From a bacterium (GTDB taxonomy: Bacteria; Patescibacteriota; Patescibacteriia; UBA9934; GWF2-40-263): DNA of 64,000 nt. Numbering within the stretch: position 1 is the stretch's first letter; each line of letters starts with the position of its first letter. Both the position numbers and the translations under genes were made by a program. The stretch lies in the NCBI GenBank assembly GCA_020051955.1, contig JAGVQB010000045.1, positions 1,356 through 65,355 on the forward strand, given 5' to 3'. Of this stretch, positions 15,555 to 63,680 are shown piece after piece. The notes under the pieces were generated by a model. The model ran no database searches. It worked only from the letters and a program-made list of their open reading frames with translations, and had not been told where the DNA came from.

Positions 15555-15653
15555 ACCGTTATCTACAGATTACAGCATGGCGAATACGAATGTCGTGCGA
15601 ATATGCGAATAGGATCGTCCCATTAGCATATTCGCACGAGATTCGCATTAGTT
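15555..15653 (-). repeat. copy 1 of a ~100 bp palindromic interspersed repeat (IR-element) with CTGTAATCTGTAGAT box
   Basis: Near-perfect reverse complement of 48331-48430. It contains the internal palindrome TCGTGCGAATATGC...GCATATTCGCACGA and lies between convergent genes. Confidence 0.75.
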
Positions 15654-15664
15654 AAATTTCAGAT

Positions 15665-20228: not shown

Positions 20229-20303
20229 GCGGGTATCGTATAGCGGTTATTATTCCAGTTTTCCAAACTGGTGATGCGGGTTCGACTCCCGCTACCCGCT
20301 CCA
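20229..20303 (+). tRNA. tRNA-Gly (anticodon TCC), 75 nt
   Basis: Hand-folded cloverleaf: acceptor GCGGGTA/TACCCGC, anticodon stem CCAGT/ACTGG, loop TTTCCAA, T-arm GCGGGTTCGACTCCCGC, and an encoded CCA. Confidence 0.85.
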
Positions 20304-20402
20304 TCCCGTTCAAACATTGCGCCATCACCGTTAAACCGTTTGGAAGTGACAATGTCACTTCCTGTGGGGTTTACCGATTATGTCGCGGAGTTTGAACGGG
20401 AT
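20303..20402 (+). repeat. MITE-like ~100 bp element, copy A (13 bp terminal inverted repeats ATCCCGTTCAAAC / GTTTGAACGGGAT)
   Basis: Abuts the 3' end of tRNA-Gly. It is about 80 % identical to 46304-46403, with shared termini and a shared core CATCACCGTTAAACCG...GGTTTACCGATT. Confidence 0.7.
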
Positions 20403-22601: not shown

Positions 22602-24505
<1,904 letters not shown>

Positions 24506-30414: not shown

Positions 30415-30517
30415 ACATACGCAAGTTAACACGGAGTAAAGCTAGGAGTCCAGTTTTTTGTTGATTCCTTTCTCCGTTTGGGTTTTGGATTTTGGTTTTT
30501 TGGATTTTTCGGTTTCA

Positions 30518-32788
30518 TTACCTCCTCGCAACCCCATTCTGCGTGATTTCCTCCAGGTGGACTGACAACAAGCTCGAAATGCCGTCAGTGCCCATTGTTA
30601 CGCCATAGAGAATATCTGCTTTTTCCATTGTCGCGCGGTTGTGGGTGATGACGATGAATTGGCTAGTGCGCGCGAGGTCCTCCAGGATCGCGGCGAAGCG
30701 GATTGTGTTGGCTTCATCAAGCGCGGCATCAACCTCGTCGAGCACAACAAACGGCGCTGGGTTTACTGCCATGATTGCGGAGACAAGAGCGATTGATGTA
30801 AGCGCGCGCTCACCACCGGAAAGCAGGTTTAACGCCTTGAGCCTTTTCCCAGGCGGGGTTGCTTGGATGTCGATGCCGACAATTTTTTCCTCCGCGTTTA
30901 CCCGTTCCCTGTTCACCGTTCCCTGTTCACTGTTCCCTCCCTCTACCGTTTCCTCCACCTCTTCCCTCGTCAACTTCACCAACGCGCACGATCCTCCACC
31001 GAAAAGCATTTTGAAATATCGCTCAAACTCTTTATTGATTTTGGAGAACGTTGCCTTTGACTGTTTTTCAATTTGTTCGTCGAGTTCCTTGATTATTTTT
31101 TCTGTTGACGCGAGAGCGGCGTTGAGGTCTTTGACCTGCTCATCAAGAAATTCGAAACGATCTTTTGTCTCGCCGTATTCTTTTACTATTTCCGGATCAA
31201 TTCCACCTATGAGTTCGAGCTTGTATCGAAGGCGCTGGATTTCGGGATAGGCTTCATCGGTTTGGATTTTGGATTTTGGATTTTGGATTTTTTCCTGCCT
31301 CACCCCCACCGCCCTCTCCTTCATAAACTCATCCATCTCCCGCGTGAGGGCTTTTTGGCGTTCCTCAAAACGCACTAAAGCGATTTGGAGAGTGTTGCGC
31401 TCGTTTTCTAGCAAGTGGGTTTGATTTTGTTTTTCGCGCAGGGAATGTTGCAAGCCGATAAGTTCACTTCGGGCAGTGCGTTCCTTACTTGTGTAGTTGT
31501 CGATTGTTTTTTCAAGCTCGTCAATTTCTTTTACTAGATTTTGTTCTTGCGTTCGCTTGGTTTTCAGTTCCTCAACCATTTTTGGATCAGGCTTGATGTC
31601 TTCTGGGTTTGGGCGCTGAAGACTTTTGGAAAGTTTTTGTGACCGCGTAAGAAGTGACTCGATTCCATCCAAAATTGCCTCCAGCCCTTTCAGCCCTCGC
31701 AGTCCTTTTAGTCCTTCCACCATTCCCTCAACCTCCTCAACGATTTTCAACAAAGGAAGCGGCGCCCAATTTGATTGCGCGCGCGCTCGCGCGAGTTCGA
31801 TTTCTTTTTCGAGCGAGAATTGCTCGCTCCGCAAAGCCTCACGTTTTTTTCCAAGCGCTTTGTATTGATTCTTCAAACCTACCAGTTGTGTGTCCTCATC
31901 GGTCCCAAAGTTTTCAGCGCGCTCTGATTCTTTTTCAAGCGTGTGAAGTTCTGCCCTCTCGGTTTTAATTTTTTTCTCAATCTCATCAAACCCCTGTCTT
32001 GCTGTTTCCAATTCGTCCATCAGGTTCCACCATTGAGAACCGTAATAACACGACTCAAGCTCGTGGAGGGCTTTTTCAATCTCACCGCGTTGTTCAAGAC
32101 GTACTGCTTGGCGCTTAAGAGAACGAAGCCGCGGTTCGATTTCCCGCAACAGCATTTCAACCTCTGTCAGATTTTCGTGTGTGCGCGTGAGTTTTAACAA
32201 TGCCTCGTGTCGTTTGATTTGGAATGGTTTTACTCCGGTGGCATCGTCAAAAAAATCTTTGCGCTCCTCTGGAGATGAAACAAGAATGTGGTCAATCATG
32301 CCTTGTCCGATAACGCAGTACGAACGCTGTCCAACGTTTGCTTCTGCCAGAAGTAGTTGGATATCAGCAAGGCGAACAGAGCCCTCGTTGAGGAGATAAT
32401 CGGAAGTTCCATCTCGAAACAGCCTCCGCGTGATTACTACCTCTGGGTATTCAAGTGGCATTGTTTTGTCTTGGTTGTTGAAGGTCAAAGATACTTGCGC
32501 AAAGCCAGATCGTCCTTTGCCATCAGAGCCAGAAAAAATTACATCCTCTGATTTTTTTCCACGCAAAAGTTTAAGACTTTGTTCACCCAGCACCCATCTG
32601 ATCGCGTCAGCAAGGTTTGATTTACCGCTACCATTTGGACCAACGATGGAGGTGATGGGGAATCGTAATTCCCCCCCTGCCCGAGGGGGGGTCAGGGGGG
32701 GTGGGAGTGCGGCCGGTGGGAGAAAAGAAAGCGTTGTTTTTTTTGCAAACGTTTTGAACCCCTGCAGTTCCAGTTTAGTAAGAAACAT
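30518..32788 (-). CDS. SMC/RecF-superfamily ATPase with long coiled coils (SMC-like, 756 aa, no obvious hinge) carrying several low-complexity inserts
   Basis: N-terminal Walker A (GPNGSGKSNLADAIRWVLGEQS), a long heptad-rich middle, and C-terminal signature plus Walker B (LSGGERALTSIALVSAIMAVNPAPFVVLDEVDAALD). The inserts LPPAALPPPLTPPRAGGELR, KIQNPKSKIQ and VEETVEGGNSEQGTVNRERVNAE are encoded by simple repeats. Confidence 0.8.
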   Translation of the reverse strand: MFLTKLELQGFKTFAKKTTLSFLPPAALPPPLTPPRAGGELRFPITSIVGPNGSGKSNLADAIRWVLGEQSLKLLRGKKSEDVIFSGSDGKGRSGFAQVSLTFNNQDKTMPLEYPEVVITRRLFRDGTSDYLLNEGSVRLADIQLLLAEANVGQRSYCVIGQGMIDHILVSSPEERKDFFDDATGVKPFQIKRHEALLKLTRTHENLTEVEMLLREIEPRLRSLKRQAVRLEQRGEIEKALHELESCYYGSQWWNLMDELETARQGFDEIEKKIKTERAELHTLEKESERAENFGTDEDTQLVGLKNQYKALGKKREALRSEQFSLEKEIELARARAQSNWAPLPLLKIVEEVEGMVEGLKGLRGLKGLEAILDGIESLLTRSQKLSKSLQRPNPEDIKPDPKMVEELKTKRTQEQNLVKEIDELEKTIDNYTSKERTARSELIGLQHSLREKQNQTHLLENERNTLQIALVRFEERQKALTREMDEFMKERAVGVRQEKIQNPKSKIQTDEAYPEIQRLRYKLELIGGIDPEIVKEYGETKDRFEFLDEQVKDLNAALASTEKIIKELDEQIEKQSKATFSKINKEFERYFKMLFGGGSCALVKLTREEVEETVEGGNSEQGTVNRERVNAEEKIVGIDIQATPPGKRLKALNLLSGGERALTSIALVSAIMAVNPAPFVVLDEVDAALDEANTIRFAAILEDLARTSQFIVITHNRATMEKADILYGVTMGTDGISSLLSVHLEEITQNGVARR

Positions 32789-34809: not shown

Positions 34810-35017
34810 ATTTCGTAACCTCTTGTCGGATAGTACGTCGATTGCGAGTGAGCATGCAAGGAAAACTGTGGATAAAAATAGTCGGGCGGTGGCATATTGT
34901 TATATTGATAAATTGTTAAATGGTTAAATTGTTGTGGAGCAAGACGATGGGCGGCAGACAAAACGTCTATCTAGACAACCATTTAACAATATAACCATTT
35001 AACAATTTAACCCTCTG

Positions 35018-46303: not shown

Positions 46304-46403
46304 ATCCCGTTCAAACACCGCGTCATCACCGTTAAACCGCTGACAAGTGACGTCGTCTCTTCCTGCGCGGTTTACCGATTTTGGCGCAGCGTTTGAACGG
46401 GAT
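46304..46403 (+). repeat. MITE-like ~100 bp element, copy B, in the typA leader
   Basis: ATCCCGTTCAAACACCGCGTCATCACCGTTAAACCG...GGTTTACCGATT...GCGTTTGAACGGGAT. It is about 80 % identical to 20303-20402 and shares the same 13 bp termini. Confidence 0.7.
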
Positions 46404-48270: not shown

Positions 48271-48330
48271 TTTAAAAGGCGGGAGCAAAGGCTCCTGTCT
48301 TTTTTGTAGGTAGCCTGCGCCTATTTTGGG

Positions 48331-48430
48331 TAACGAATGCGAATCTCGTGCGAATATACTAATAGGACGATGCTATTCGCATATTCGCACGACATTCGTA
48401 TTCGCTCTACTGTAATCTGTAGATCGGTAG
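48331..48430 (+). repeat. copy 2 of the ~100 bp palindromic interspersed repeat (IR-element) with CTGTAATCTGTAGAT box
   Basis: Reverse complement of 15555-15653 with about 95 % core identity. It lies between the typA terminator and the 3' end of the minus-strand MFS gene. Confidence 0.75.
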
Positions 48431-48433
48431 CTT

Positions 48434-49669
48434 TTATGTCCCTACCTCTTGAACCGCAACAGGCTCATCGCTATGAGCCAACGTTCGCATCAACCGTTTG
48501 AGTAACCACAGAACTGGCAACTGAACGACAAACATCATCACAAGTCCATAACGAATCGTTGCGTCTGGGGCGAGGTGGTAAGCGAGGATAAATAAGAGAA
48601 GCCCGACCACGCGGCCAAAGTTGAGACAGTACTCGCGGTCGAGGATGTAAAGAAAACGGTGCTCGCTATCACGTTTCACTTCTCGATCCACCACCTCATA
48701 CAGGACCGTGACAAACGATGACCAGCGTAATGATCCAGTAATGCCCGCGATAATAAAGTACGCGATCGCGGAAGCGGCCGTGAACACGCTTGCGAAAAGC
48801 GCGCCAGCAAGGAGGTTCACAGCGACCCAGATTCCGACCAGCATTAGGTGATGTTTGTGACGCACGCGCTTGCCGATCGCGTAGATCATGATGGCGGAGA
48901 GCACGCCAGTGAGAGCCTTCACGCTACCAACGGCTTCCTCCTGACCAAGAAAAAGGAGTACGACCAAAAGTGGAATCACGACTTCCAGGCCACTGGTTAT
49001 GCTATTGAGCATTTCGATTGCTCGTTGCTGGTTCCACCTAGCGGTCGCGTGTCGAACAAACGGCGTGTTCACGACAAACGGTTCGATTACAAATTTGTGT
49101 GCGAGCACGCCGGTCGCGATGAGGAGGACGAGCCCGATCCCAGCGCAAAGTTGATACGCTTGTGCGACAGAGTAGGAAGGAATCGTGCCACCAAGCGCGA
49201 TGAACCAACCAATAACCAACGGCGAGACGATCCCTGCCACGATTCCAAGCATTGTCTCCACGCTGATAAATCTAAATCGTCGCGCGTCCTGCGTAAACTT
49301 TGATGTGATGCTATTGCGGTTAGCCCAGTAGAAACCTTGTGCGAGTCCAAGAGCGAGTCCAAGTGGGAGAGTGTAATCAGCCGCGGAAGCGCCCATTGAT
49401 ACTAAGAGCACTGGGATGAGTCCTTGCGCAAGACAACCAAAGGCATAGAGCTTGCCACTTTGCCACACTCGTAGCGCGTAGGCATTAACGAGAAATCCAA
49501 GCGAGATCCCCGCGTACATTCCAATGTTGAAAATCCCAAGCGTGATTGGGTCATGGTCCAGTCGCCACAAGAAAGTATTTGTGTAAACAGACACCATTGG
49601 CGAGGCAAGCGCGAAGAGGAAAAAAGATAGGAGTAGGCGACGTTGATTTTGGGAGAGGTCGTTGAGCAT
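48434..49669 (-). CDS. MFS-type membrane transporter (411 aa)
   Basis: 12 predicted TM helices with an MFS-like repeat structure. ATG at 49669. Confidence 0.65.
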   Translation of the reverse strand: MLNDLSQNQRRLLLSFFLFALASPMVSVYTNTFLWRLDHDPITLGIFNIGMYAGISLGFLVNAYALRVWQSGKLYAFGCLAQGLIPVLLVSMGASAADYTLPLGLALGLAQGFYWANRNSITSKFTQDARRFRFISVETMLGIVAGIVSPLVIGWFIALGGTIPSYSVAQAYQLCAGIGLVLLIATGVLAHKFVIEPFVVNTPFVRHATARWNQQRAIEMLNSITSGLEVVIPLLVVLLFLGQEEAVGSVKALTGVLSAIMIYAIGKRVRHKHHLMLVGIWVAVNLLAGALFASVFTAASAIAYFIIAGITGSLRWSSFVTVLYEVVDREVKRDSEHRFLYILDREYCLNFGRVVGLLLFILAYHLAPDATIRYGLVMMFVVQLPVLWLLKRLMRTLAHSDEPVAVQEVGT

Positions 49670-49689
49670 ATTGATGGAAAGTATACTGC

Positions 49690-49880
49690 CGACAAAGTTC
49701 AAAAAACAAATTACAACTGACAAATTACAAGCAATTTACAATGAACAAATTACAAACAAATTACAATTAACAATTTACAATAGGCGGTGCAAACAATTTC
49801 AGTGCCCCCGTTTGTAATTTGTCCAATTGTGATTTGTTAATTTGTTTCTTGCCCATTTGTCATTTGCGTTTTTGTGTGGC
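49690..49880. repeat. iteron-like array: ~8 direct copies of ACAAATTACA followed by ~6 inverted copies (TTGTAATTTG), forming a ~170 bp imperfect palindrome
   Basis: The left arm is ACAAATTACAACTGACAAATTACAAGCAATTTACAATGAACAAATTACAAACAAATTACAATTAACAATTTACAA. The right arm reads GTTTGTAATTTGTCCAATTGTGATTTGTTAATTTGTTTCTTGCCCATTTGTCATTTG. Confidence 0.7.
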
Positions 49881-49904
49881 CACTGTAGGCTTTAGGTAAG
49901 AAAT

Positions 49905-50978
49905 ATGCAGACACACGATCAGCTTCCAACAAAAGAAGACCTCTTCCCATTATTAGAAAAACTGTTTGGTTTTTCATCGATTCAGGATTTGGTTCTAATC
50001 GTCGGTGGGCATTTGAGTAAGAATTTTTTGCTTTTGGTTGGCGGAGAAAAATATTTTCTTAAACAATACCGCTACAAGCTCAACCCCGTTATACATCAGA
50101 TTAAATTCGCGGAGACTTTTTATTCGTCAAAGGGGGTAAGGGTGATAATGCCATTGCGTGATAGGTTTGATCGCCCAGCTTTTTTCTTTAATGGAAATTG
50201 GTTTAGTCTGTTTCCTTTTATTGATAAAAAGGCAATTGAAATTTCACAGCTTACTGACGACGGGCTGATGACGCTTGCGAACCAATTAGGCGTCATGCAC
50301 ACGGCCGGGAAAGATGCTGGAAAGACGACGCAGTCTCTTTTGATGTGGGATAAAAATCGTTTTAACCTCGATGTATGTGAGCTTGAAATGAAACTTGAGA
50401 GTACGGACGTGCAAGAAACAACGAACATGTTGATAGCCAGCGTCCTAGAGCAAAAAAAGAAATTCGTTGAGAAAAATATTTTTGCCCTAGAGGATATCTC
50501 TCTTCCTTTTGACACATTGCTCCACGGAGATCTTAGTTACCAGAACGTATTTTTTTCACCTGATCAGAAACAGATCGATTATGTTTTTGATTTTGAAAAA
50601 ACCGCGCGCGGGCCTCGCGCGTTCGAACTCGCTCGCTCGATATGTATAAATGTATTTGATGATGGGTGGGATGATAAACGACTTGAAAAGGCCACCTTAT
50701 TTTTGCGAGCGTATCAAGAGGTGGCCCCGATTACCTACGAGGAATTTTTAATCGGGCTTCGGGCGTATCTGGTTCTTACTGCTCACCAGCTGTGGATTGA
50801 ATGGAAGATACTTTTTTGTGGTGAAACAAAATATATTCCTCTGTTACGTTCACATAGCATTAGGATCAACCATTTGGGGGATGGCATTGATACACTGGCG
50901 ACATCAATTTATGGGAGGCAAATAGGATCACATGAATTTCCACCCCCGTCACCCCTGCCACCTGTGTCACCCTTGTAA
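49905..50978 (+). CDS. aminoglycoside/choline-kinase-type phosphotransferase family protein (APH-like) with Pro-rich C-terminal repeat
   Basis: The Brenner motif LLHGDLSYQNVFF and a downstream DFE are typical of PF01636. The C-terminus PPPSPLPPVSPL is encoded by CACCC repeats. Confidence 0.75.
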   Translation: MQTHDQLPTKEDLFPLLEKLFGFSSIQDLVLIVGGHLSKNFLLLVGGEKYFLKQYRYKLNPVIHQIKFAETFYSSKGVRVIMPLRDRFDRPAFFFNGNWFSLFPFIDKKAIEISQLTDDGLMTLANQLGVMHTAGKDAGKTTQSLLMWDKNRFNLDVCELEMKLESTDVQETTNMLIASVLEQKKKFVEKNIFALEDISLPFDTLLHGDLSYQNVFFSPDQKQIDYVFDFEKTARGPRAFELARSICINVFDDGWDDKRLEKATLFLRAYQEVAPITYEEFLIGLRAYLVLTAHQLWIEWKILFCGETKYIPLLRSHSIRINHLGDGIDTLATSIYGRQIGSHEFPPPSPLPPVSPL

Positions 50979-51043
50979 CCCTTGTAGCTCTTGTCACCTT
51001 TGTTTTTCCCTCCCTCCTCACCACACACCATTGCCACATACCA

Positions 51044-51948: not shown

Positions 51949-53019
51949 ATGCGTGTCCTTGGAATCGAAACAAGTTGTGATGAAACAGCGGCGGCGATTG
52001 TGTCTGAGTATGACGGTAGTTTTGTGATTGAAAAAAGCGTGCTGGCATCGCAGGCGAAGATTCACGCGCAATACGGCGGAGTAGTGCCAGAGGTTGCCGC
52101 GCGTGAGCATGCCGCGTTTTTGTTTCCGCTGTTGGAAGAGCTTGGTGTGCCGCGAGACGGCGCGGGGATTGACGCGCTCGCCGTGACTTATGGTCCTGGG
52201 CTTGTGCCTGCGTTGCGGGTGGGGGTGGAGGCGGCCAAGGCACTCGCGTGGTGCTGGGGCAAACCGTTGGTGGCAGTGAATCATTTGGAGGGGCACATAT
52301 ATAGCGTGTGGTTGGATGGGGAAGGAAAGATCCAAAATCCAGGAACCAAAATCCAAACAACGCAAAGTAACTCAGTTGAGTTTCCAGCAGTATGCCTGCT
52401 TGTGTCAGGTGGGCATACCGAGCTTGTTCTCATGCGAGATCATGGTGAGTACGAGTTGCTGGGAATGACGCGAGATGACGCGGCTGGGGAGGCGTTTGAT
52501 AAAGTCGCAAAGTTGTTGGGACTGCCGTACCCAGGTGGTCCAGAGATTTCGAAAGTGGCGCTTAATGGGAACCCACGCGCGGTTAATTTTCCAAGGCCGA
52601 TGATTGAGTCCGGGGATTTGGATTTTAGTTTTGCTGGATTGAAGACGGCGGTGAGGGTTTTTGTCGAAGGTGGGGAGGTGGGGAGGTGGGGAGGTGATTT
52701 AGATATTGCGGATATTGCCGCGAGTTTTCAGCAGGCTGTGGTTGACGTGCTTGTCTCAAAGACCTTACAGGCGGTCAAGAAAGTCGTGCCGCGCAGTGTG
52801 ATTTTGTCGGGCGGTGTGTCTGCGAACAAGTTACTTAAAGAAATACTTGAGAGCGAATTGCGTCGCGTTGCCCCAGAGATTCCATTTTATGTCCCAGAGC
52901 TTTCTCTTACTGGCGACAACGCCGCTATGATCGCGGCCGCGGGTATCATGCGCGCCAAGCGCGGGGCGTTTGCTGACCCTCTCACACTGGTCGCGGATCC
53001 GAACGCGAAATTAAACTAG
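51949..53019 (+). CDS. tsaD: tRNA N6-adenosine threonylcarbamoyltransferase (Kae1/TsaD), with two low-complexity inserts
   Basis: MRVLGIETSCDETAAAIV and the HLEGH metal-binding site. Inserts KIQNPGTKIQTTQS and EGGEVGRWGGDLDI are present. Confidence 0.92.
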   Translation: MRVLGIETSCDETAAAIVSEYDGSFVIEKSVLASQAKIHAQYGGVVPEVAAREHAAFLFPLLEELGVPRDGAGIDALAVTYGPGLVPALRVGVEAAKALAWCWGKPLVAVNHLEGHIYSVWLDGEGKIQNPGTKIQTTQSNSVEFPAVCLLVSGGHTELVLMRDHGEYELLGMTRDDAAGEAFDKVAKLLGLPYPGGPEISKVALNGNPRAVNFPRPMIESGDLDFSFAGLKTAVRVFVEGGEVGRWGGDLDIADIAASFQQAVVDVLVSKTLQAVKKVVPRSVILSGGVSANKLLKEILESELRRVAPEIPFYVPELSLTGDNAAMIAAAGIMRAKRGAFADPLTLVADPNAKLN

Positions 53020-59195: not shown

Positions 59196-59544
59196 AAGTG
59201 TTTTCCGTTAGGCATGTCCCCCAAAGCCTTTGCTAAGGAGGAGGGCCCAAACGGTGCTAAGAATAAGATAATGGTGGGAGTGTAGTAGAATCGGCTGGTT
59301 GCGTCAATAAATAGGGGGAGGGAATCAAGGTGGTCAAGGCTGTCGAGGTTATCAAGGTTGGGAGGGTGTTAATAGTATTCCCCCTCCTTTTCAAGGAGGG
59401 GTCAGGGGTGGTTATCCCGCACTATCTGTAAAATCTGTAAATCTGTAAGAATCTGTAATCTGTAGATAGGTAGTCTCTATGTTCAACGCGCCTCGGCTAG
59501 TCTAAAATAGACGCATAAGAATTATCTCCAGGATCCCTACTAAT

Positions 59545-63571: not shown

Positions 63572-63680
63572 CGTTGACAGTGCCAATTGTCCCTGCTAAC
63601 CTTCCGTCGTTCACCTCCCCACCTTCCCACCTCCCACACCTAATCACCTCCCCACCTAACCACCTCACCACCTAACCACT

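Follow-up and report, generated by a model that had tools for sequence, protein, structure and literature searches.

What is the repeat-built palindrome that lies between two divergent genes of a candidate-phyla-radiation bacterium, and does it serve a regulator, a replicon or nothing in particular? The locus sits in a 64,000-nucleotide stretch of contig JAGVQB010000045.1 (assembly GCA_020051955.1), the whole of which is called the window here, between the gene of a major facilitator superfamily (MFS) transporter and that of an APH-family phosphotransferase. An initial annotation, made from the sequence alone, had described it as a 10-mer array forming an imperfect palindrome and had likened it to multi-site operators, iteron arrays or a cruciform-forming element. 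Our preferred answer, to which we assign a probability of roughly 0.55, is that the array is a lineage-specific, degenerate inverted pair of heptanucleotide simple sequence repeat (SSR) arrays, of the form (ACAA+NNN)n-centre-(NNN+TTGT)n, of recent date and located in a compact divergent promoter. Its role is probably no more than that of passive DNA upstream of both genes, which spaces or insulates them, supplies -35 elements in place of those lost and could form a cruciform; the least certain part of this reading is the origin of the array, whether by slippage and inverted duplication or as a small mobile hairpin. The parts of the locus are as follows.

48434..49669, minus strand: MFS transporter gene (Pfam MFS_1), start codon 49667-49669; the MFS orthologue of the related lineage L129 (57% identity) aligns with it start to start, which confirms the annotated start at 49669.
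49670-49904: MFS-APH divergent spacer, 235 nt, between the minus-strand MFS start at 49669 and the plus-strand APH start at 49905.
49676..49686: block GGAAAGTATAC, holding a minus-strand -10-like TATACT (49685->49680) for the MFS gene; it matches ATGGACAAAGTATA(G/C), which is invariant in the spacers of relatives.
49688-49881: whole repeat palindrome, with symmetry from GCC at 49688 to GGC at 49880 when the left arm is aligned to the reverse complement of the right arm.
49688-49782, plus strand: left arm, a decayed unit at 49692 and then six ACAA(A/T)TTACAA at 49706, 49720, 49731, 49745, 49756 and 49770.
49709->49704, minus strand: -35-like TTGTTT, from the outermost left-arm unit, 18 nt from TATACT.
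49783-49810: centre GGCGGTGCAAACAATTTCAGTGCCCCCG, 28 nt, GC-rich.
49811-49881, minus strand: right arm, shorter and more decayed, with TTGTAATTTGT at 49812-49822, TTGTGATTTGT at 49827-49837, TAATTTGTTT at 49838-49847 and then degenerate CCATTTGTCATTTGCGTTTTTGTGTGGC.
49864-49869, plus strand: TTGCGT in the right arm, a possible -35 of APH, 16 nt from TAGGCT and assigned by spacing.
49883..49892, plus strand: block CTGTAGGCTT, with a -10-like TAGGCT (49886-49891) for APH; its equivalents are TGTAAGGTT / AGTAGGGT(T/A) in relatives and GTGTAAGTT in distant ones.
49905..50978, plus strand: APH-family phosphotransferase gene (Pfam APH); a database protein of 357 aa matches it at 100% identity and so confirms the annotated start at 49905, and Uhrbacteria/Patescibacteria homologues are 53-56% identical.

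The repetition noted at first is real, but its unit is better defined as 11-mer cores, ACAA(A/T)TTACAA, set on a 7-nt lattice than as a 10-mer. Compared with the 10-mer, the six 11-mers of the left arm are exact in four cases and carry one mismatch in one case and two in another; in the right arm one inverted copy is exact (49813-49822), one has a single mismatch (49828-49837), and about three are decayed, out to 49880. The totals are thus about 6(+1) direct and 2(+3) inverted units, and the earlier figures of about eight direct and six inverted copies were an overcount. Start-to-start distances in the left arm run 14, 11, 14, 11, 14, and the best Tandem Repeats Finder (TRF) model has a period of 25 with 3.1 copies (81% matches, score 99), corresponding to core, 3-nt spacer, core. 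A period-7 model (ACAAATT) gives 11.6 copies with only 63% matches and 16% indels, and a period-14 model fits too. Aligned on the lattice, 13 consecutive ACAA-headed units (ACAA+NNN) span 49692-49777, some of them spaced by 4-6 nt and with variable trailing bases, and the '10-mer' is therefore two ACAA heads and an ATT. By both TRF and lattice alignment, the array is a head-to-tail heptanucleotide repeat in degenerate form, and a complementary second arm able to pair with the left one lies close by. The left arm exceeds the right by one 25-nt unit and is made of far cleaner units, which points to recent local re-amplification on the left side.

Neither the clustering nor the symmetry is expected by chance. 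At up to one mismatch, ACAAATTACA has 14 matches in the 64 kb against 4.57 +/- 2.31 expected, a number that none of 100 shuffles reached; seven of the 14 fall inside a stretch of 132 nt in the array, and the other seven are at about chance level across the window. Folded as DNA, 49688-49881 reaches -34.1 kcal/mol (shuffles -21.7 +/- 3.35; z -3.70; 0 of 200 shuffles as good), and folded as RNA it forms one long hairpin of -50.5 kcal/mol (shuffles -33.4; z -4.12). The imperfect palindrome therefore stands where it was first placed, and the proposed cruciform- or hairpin-forming element is possible. A random-frequency AT-rich spacer, which the initial annotation had named as the outcome that would undo its claim, is not what was found: the repeat is real, but it belongs to the simple-sequence-repeat class. 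The GC-rich centre is likewise present, and it occurs once in the window, where no second copy was found even at three mismatches and no further copy of the arm-centre junctions was seen. The sole similarity of the array within the window is a weak one (E ~0.06-0.1) to another A/T-rich array at 34896-35009. The array is not a CRISPR array, as the initial annotation had concluded, since its units are 11 nt with 0-3-nt spacers, as against repeats of 23-50 nt with unique spacers of similar size.

The orthologous spacer was compared in related genomes. Synteny is kept in the four closest related lineages, whose APH proteins are 53-56% identical, and the gene order there is TypA ... (MFS or another gene) and a 144-aa membrane protein on the minus strand, followed across the divergent spacer by APH on the plus strand, a Fic-like protein, TsaD, TsaE and a type II secretion system (T2SS) ATPase. 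In all four, the divergent spacer is only 59-64 nt long and free of repeats (for example L122:3937-4000, L126:3940-4000 and L129:3941-4000). These spacers share two blocks, ATGGACAAAGTATA(G/C) and TGTAAGGTT / AGTAGGGT(T/A), the latter being TGTA(A/G)GGTT, and both are retained in the window. It follows that the array was inserted or expanded in this lineage and is not a conserved control region; the check for conservation in relatives, which the initial annotation had proposed, found it absent from the four closest lineages. More distant APH relatives (L131-L133) have rearranged gene orders and short upstream spacers, with GTGTAAGTT at a similar distance from the APH start. The 144-aa membrane-protein gene of all close relatives is absent from the window, and tblastn found no remnant of it anywhere in the 64 kb. 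After the 100% match, the next-best APH relative in the protein collection is 56% identical, and a metagenome scan with the APH protein returned one distant relative only (26% identity), which lacks the array.

The same comparison suggests what the array interrupted. In every close relative T(G/A)GACA stands exactly 17 nt from TA(A/G)GGT, plausibly as the -35/-10 pair of APH, and the first shared block reads TATACT on the other strand, plausibly the -10 of the leftward gene. The TATACT and TAGGCT blocks of the window would then be the ancestral -10 elements of the leftward gene and of APH. The -10 boxes are about 12 nt apart in the relatives and about 200 bp apart in the window, and the palindrome fills exactly that gap. 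The outermost TTG hexamers of the arms, at 16-18 nt from the kept -10 boxes, may stand in for the lost -35 elements, which would explain why the insertion was tolerated. As a separate observation on the leftward gene, the MFS start codon lies only 10 nt from the conserved TATACT block, implying a nearly leaderless mRNA.

We sought to learn how widely the same unit is found in other bacteria. A scan for ACAAATTACAA-N(0-4)-ACAAATTACAA across 185,579 GTDB species-representative genomes returned at least 120 stretches, against about 0.3 expected by our own calculation under uniform composition. The matches listed come from Acidobacteriota, Bacteroidota, Ignavibacteria, Patescibacteria, Cyanobacteria (Nostoc, Umezakia, Microcoleus and Nostocales), Bacillota, Planctomycetota, Verrucomicrobiota and others, isolate genomes included, and most of them are pure (AATTACA)n heptamer arrays. 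Inverted pairs of the form (ACAAATT)n-centre-(AATTTGT)n make up at least 14 of the listed loci by a strict rule, and more by eye (for example L006, L008, L017, L109 and L115); loci with inverted pairs also include L004, L007, L012, L019, L027, L035, L047, L072, L081, L111 and L119. Their centres measure 4-236 nt, and among the listed loci none are related, several holding GC-rich hairpins of their own. Among the matches listed, 38 of 118 arrays lie within long open reading frames (ORFs), with the stop-free sense orientation in 36 cases and a Patescibacteria host in many; in-frame (AATTACA)3-5 arrays encode NYKLQIT-type peptides, the Patescibacteria genes including glycosyltransferases (loci L005, L020, L021, L053, L054, L066, L068, L071, L090, L094, L102, L113, L120 and others). 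Over 0.8 Mb of the listed loci we counted 177 period-7 arrays with 54 distinct heptamers, and periods 14 and 21 are also in excess. The occurrence of such arrays in many phyla and contexts argues that the unit is a general heptamer-repeat phenomenon and not a private binding site of the MFS-APH locus.

The window itself shows the same tendency. It holds six period-7 tandem arrays against 0.35 expected and five of period 8 against none expected, with no tandem arrays of period 5, 6, 9 or 10, so that there is a general period-7 excess in which the array's own unit does not recur. These short-period arrays use many different units and are located in spacers and in variable protein loops. The repeats concerned, together with the palindromic elements of the window, are the following.

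59424-59466: tandem array of ATCTGTAA, in a spacer.
63612-63679: CACCTCCC/CACCTAAC array, which takes up the whole spacer from the stop codon of gyrA to the ATG of rpmF (L32).
30477-30508, 30902-30938 and 31261-31291: in-gene tandem repeats of 7-9 nt, including TTTGGAT, in an SMC-like gene.
52330-52357 and 52668-52696: in-gene repeats of TsaD, ATCCAAA and AGGTGGGG, located where the protein has two hypervariable loops.
50941-51003: tandem repeat of 7-9-nt units at the 3' end of the APH gene.
34896-35009: second palindromic array, units ATTGTTAA/ATGGTTAA, with a 43-nt unique centre followed by inverted units.
15560-15655 and 48320-48420: dispersed palindrome pair 1, 95 nt, GCGAATA-type repeats, about 90% identical, in opposite orientation.
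20303-20402 and 46304-46403: dispersed palindrome pair 2, ATCCCGTTCAAACA...TGTTTGAACGGGAT, 100 nt, 86% identical.

The second palindromic array has the architecture of the one under study, and its arms match the inner units of the left arm at 84% over 31 nt, a weak similarity (E ~0.06). It directly follows the 3' end of a VanW-like gene, with clpP upstream of it, in a 3' or convergent position and not at a promoter. Both copies of the first dispersed pair lie between convergent genes, the second of them between typA and the MFS gene; of the second pair, one copy abuts a tRNA-Gly gene and the other lies just upstream of typA. Two side observations concern the tandem repeats: the CACCTCCC/CACCTAAC unit has the sense of the 16S 3' tail (anti-Shine-Dalgarno) and not that of a ribosome-binding site, and the TsaD repeats coincide with two loops that are of variable length or missing in relatives. 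This suggests that the expansion of repeats provides material for inserted loops in TsaD and other conserved proteins. The host is a Patescibacteria genome of the candidate phyla radiation, Uhrbacteria-like, as judged from the labels of the APH homologues and the form of the 16S rRNA gene (22602-24505). That gene measures 1904 nt against a 1533-nt model, with about 370 nt of insertions, an insertion-rich form typical of candidate-phyla-radiation bacteria; it has no adjacent 23S gene, and a tRNA-Ile gene lies about 1.5 kb away.

Heptamer repeats of this general kind are already on record. The cyanobacterial short tandemly repeated repetitive (STRR) sequences were reportedly treated by Mazel in 1990; their canonical units, CCCCAGT, TTGGTCA and CAACAGT, differ from the window unit. 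Small dispersed repeats (SDRs) nested in heptamer arrays are said to have been described by Elhai in 2008; SDR cores are highly conserved and multi-copy, whereas the window centre is single-copy in 64 kb. STRR sequences are 7-bp repeats forming hairpins in promoter and intergenic regions, with function unknown (PMC2670836), and the window array resembles them as a hairpin-capable 7-bp repeat in DNA of the same kind. Heptameric SSRs are over-represented in many bacterial genomes (PMC4692102, Rehm et al. 2015, citing Mrazek 2007). Xanthomonas has some 185 arrays of GGGAATC, a unit in which certain positions are conserved and others vary (GGGANTN); close opposite-strand pairs capable of forming a stem-loop or cruciform account for 70 of 186 and 75 of 183 arrays, unit numbers vary between species, and slippage is the proposed origin (PMC4692102). 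The Xanthomonas GGGAATC and Nostoc GGGGA(C/T)T pairs share with the window array the tandem 7-nt units, the opposite-strand pairing, a mostly intergenic location and the lack of a known binding protein, and their unit number and sequence vary between relatives (PMC4692102). The differences are that their units are G-rich and quadruplex-forming, whereas the A/T-rich window unit cannot form quadruplexes; that they are under-represented between divergent ORFs, whereas ours lies between divergent genes; that a single unit of theirs is present hundreds of times in a genome, whereas the window unit occurs once in 64 kb among arrays of other units; and that the host here is a Patescibacteria genome. 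We found nothing in the literature on tandem or palindromic repeats of the candidate phyla radiation.

A course of events consistent with these data can be proposed. Slippage or unequal duplication would have expanded a short A/T-rich unit, the threefold 25-nt unit of the left arm marking the latest round, and the second arm may have come from a strand switch, an inverted duplication or a hairpin insertion and have decayed since. Comparison with the relatives places the array within the 17 nt that separated -35 from -10 in an ancestral compact divergent promoter. An in-place origin of the unit is a possibility, as ancestral TGGACAAAGTATAG and unit CTGACAAATTACAA agree at 10 of 14 positions when aligned with MAFFT (estimated p ~0.05, allowing offsets). 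The array would now lie upstream of both transcription start sites, present as DNA and without a dedicated binding protein, and would uncouple two formerly overlapping promoters. It may have been tolerated because its outermost TTGT units replaced the lost -35 elements at 16-18 nt from each kept -10. Cruciform extrusion could occur under the negative supercoiling between divergent genes, and any regulatory effect would be a by-product and not a selected operator function.

Several points weigh against this reading. The 11-mer cores are far better conserved than the 3-nt spacers, with mismatches at 6 of 66 core positions and 6 of 9 spacer positions in pairwise 25-mer comparisons counted by hand, which is what binding-site selection would give; the Xanthomonas heptamers show the same position-specific conservation, again without a known protein (PMC4692102). 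The promoter assignments draw on conservation and on weak consensus matches, and a generic consensus promoter scan called no promoter at these sites, where the matches are weak. There are no strain-level relatives in which unit-number polymorphism, the signature of slippage, would appear, and the search for copies spans 64 kb of the genome; extra copies elsewhere would indicate mobility. Lastly, the A-rich-left/T-rich-right configuration, which the window array also has, outnumbers the opposite one by about 17 to 3 among the listed inverted pairs, a bias not explained by simple slippage.

The alternative that survives best, though we consider it unlikely, is a non-autonomous mobile palindrome of the type of a miniature inverted-repeat transposable element (MITE), a repetitive extragenic palindromic doublet (REPIN), a cyanobacterial SDR or a Rickettsia palindromic element, inserted as a unit, with arms that happen to be heptamers. 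Set against every syntenic relative, the array is inserted DNA, and a single palindrome takes up all of the sequence between the -10 boxes; its ends are GCC...GGC, and ACT/ACT may be a flanking duplication, but a 3-nt match of this kind is within chance. The two dispersed palindromic families of the window, with two copies each, also speak for mobility: pair 2 looks like a MITE/REP-like element, and one end of pair 1 is the SSR-like CTGTAATCTGTAGAT, identical to the end of the ATCTGTAA array at 59424-59466. Elsewhere, AATTACA arrays recur beside a conserved ACGAGGACCTTGATT segment at the Flavobacteriales locus L035, and orthologous Ignavibacteria genes (L012:1094-1179 and L109, ~1980-2090) have palindromic AATTACA arrays that occupy matching positions in frame, with differing centres and with the stop codons of the TGTAATT arm mutated away. 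These in-gene palindromes of other phyla recall the Rickettsia palindromic elements of coding genes. Rickettsia palindromic elements and MITEs are small, palindromic, hairpin-forming spacer insertions that come in families with conserved multi-copy sequences, whereas neither the centre nor a junction has a further copy in the 64 kb, and the centres of inverted pairs in other genomes are all unrelated. Unequal arms and the internal 25-nt triplication on the left also fit poorly with insertion as a unit. REPINs have a cognate REP-associated tyrosine transposase, or RAYT (PMC3116915); no transposase or RAYT was found among the selected neighbouring ORFs put to Pfam.

Distinctly unlikely is a multi-site operator, in which a DNA-binding protein would bind the ACAAATTACAA cores of both arms cooperatively and co-regulate the MFS and APH genes. 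The better conservation of cores than of spacers, the location between two divergent core promoters and a motif clustering well above chance all agree with it. Against a dedicated operator, the idea first suggested, several observations speak: the array is missing from all orthologous spacers, the motif is not at other promoters of the window nor above chance elsewhere in it, the right arm has largely decayed, and the 11- and 14-bp spacings are not helically phased. No regulator, helix-turn-helix (HTH), DNA-binding or Rep family was recognized by Pfam among the ORFs within about 7 kb, though several of these ORFs match no family. The identical unit is moreover arrayed in unrelated phyla and inside ORFs, and 7-nt and 8-nt repeats are in general excess in the window. 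Had it been a true operator or iteron array, it would have been a lead to a new regulator or replicon of a poorly understood Patescibacteria genome, which the evidence does not support.

More doubtful still is an RNA cis element, the array being transcribed as a long hairpin of about -50 kcal/mol in the 5' untranslated region (5'-UTR) of APH or MFS that RNase III would process. The very stable RNA fold is in its favour, as are the inward-facing TACAAT hexamers within the arms and the fact that AGTATACT (49680-49687) is itself palindromic and reads TATACT on the plus strand too, although that plus-strand TATACT has no -35 partner. Precedents exist in the transcript-stabilising role proposed for STRR hairpins (PMC2670836) and in the (ATCTTTC)n repeat of Haemophilus influenzae hmw1A, which is transcribed as one arm of a long 5'-UTR hairpin, is cut by RNase III and tunes expression by its unit number (PMC12721329). 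The likeness to hmw1A and hmw2A lies in a heptanucleotide repeat upstream of a gene and in a long hairpin, but the hmw repeats are perfect, number at least 11 units, are transcribed, pair with a G-rich arm and are phase-variable (PMC12721329). The window array has degenerate units, too degenerate for a slippage switch, its opposite arm is an inverted copy of the repeat, and it is probably upstream of both start sites: the kept APH -10 (TAGGCT) is downstream of the array, the leftward TATACT is likewise outside, and both face away. A known structured RNA was rejected in Rfam, where the palindrome matched no family at gathering thresholds, the best hit being a plant microRNA-precursor model with 21 bits against a gathering threshold of 211.

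About as doubtful is the idea that a dedicated mechanism, either hairpin-targeting or templated, or a protein reading ACAA at 7-nt intervals, makes or spreads heptamer palindromes across phyla. It would explain a lattice kept strictly to 7 nt, in which four positions are conserved and three are free, the A-rich-left/T-rich-right preference and the recurrence of AATTACA across phyla, and the colonised promoters and in-frame protein loops; if it were true, such an element would have rewired two essential-neighbourhood promoters here.

A replication origin, iteron cluster, partition (parC/parS-like) site or bidirectional intrinsic terminator retains next to no probability: direct repeats do adjoin an A/T-rich region, and plasmid iterons and the R1 parC site likewise have clusters of short repeats on both sides of a promoter core, but plasmid iterons are direct 17-22-bp repeats beside a rep gene and R1 parC has direct 11-bp repeats beside parMR, whereas the window array has units of 7-11 nt on a 7-nt lattice, inverted arms, no conservation in relatives, no rep, dnaA or par gene recognized by Pfam nearby, no similarity in plasmid and phage comparisons and a cumulative GC skew that rises monotonically through the site without an inflection, which together effectively refute these readings. 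The terminator was rejected as well, since the succession of A-rich, GC-rich and T-rich parts is only superficially terminator-like: the central stem is weak and has an 11-nt loop (-12.5 kcal/mol when folded locally, with z scores of -1.8 for the plus and 0.2 for the minus strand), a terminator scan found nothing within the array, and the divergent genes leave nothing to terminate.

The degenerate inverted pair of heptamer arrays that we favour is of a kind already known and functionally unexplained, of which this is a further case. The little-studied excess of 7-nt repeats, known in cyanobacteria and Xanthomonas, is extended here to Patescibacteria, where they seem, in addition, to supply sequence to loops that vary in otherwise conserved proteins, TsaD among them. 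The locus provides a natural example of a heptamer palindrome that has come to lie within a 17-nt divergent-promoter spacer and has apparently left both genes intact, and it shows how heptamer repeats can remodel promoter architecture, in which TTGT-rich units may substitute for -35 elements.

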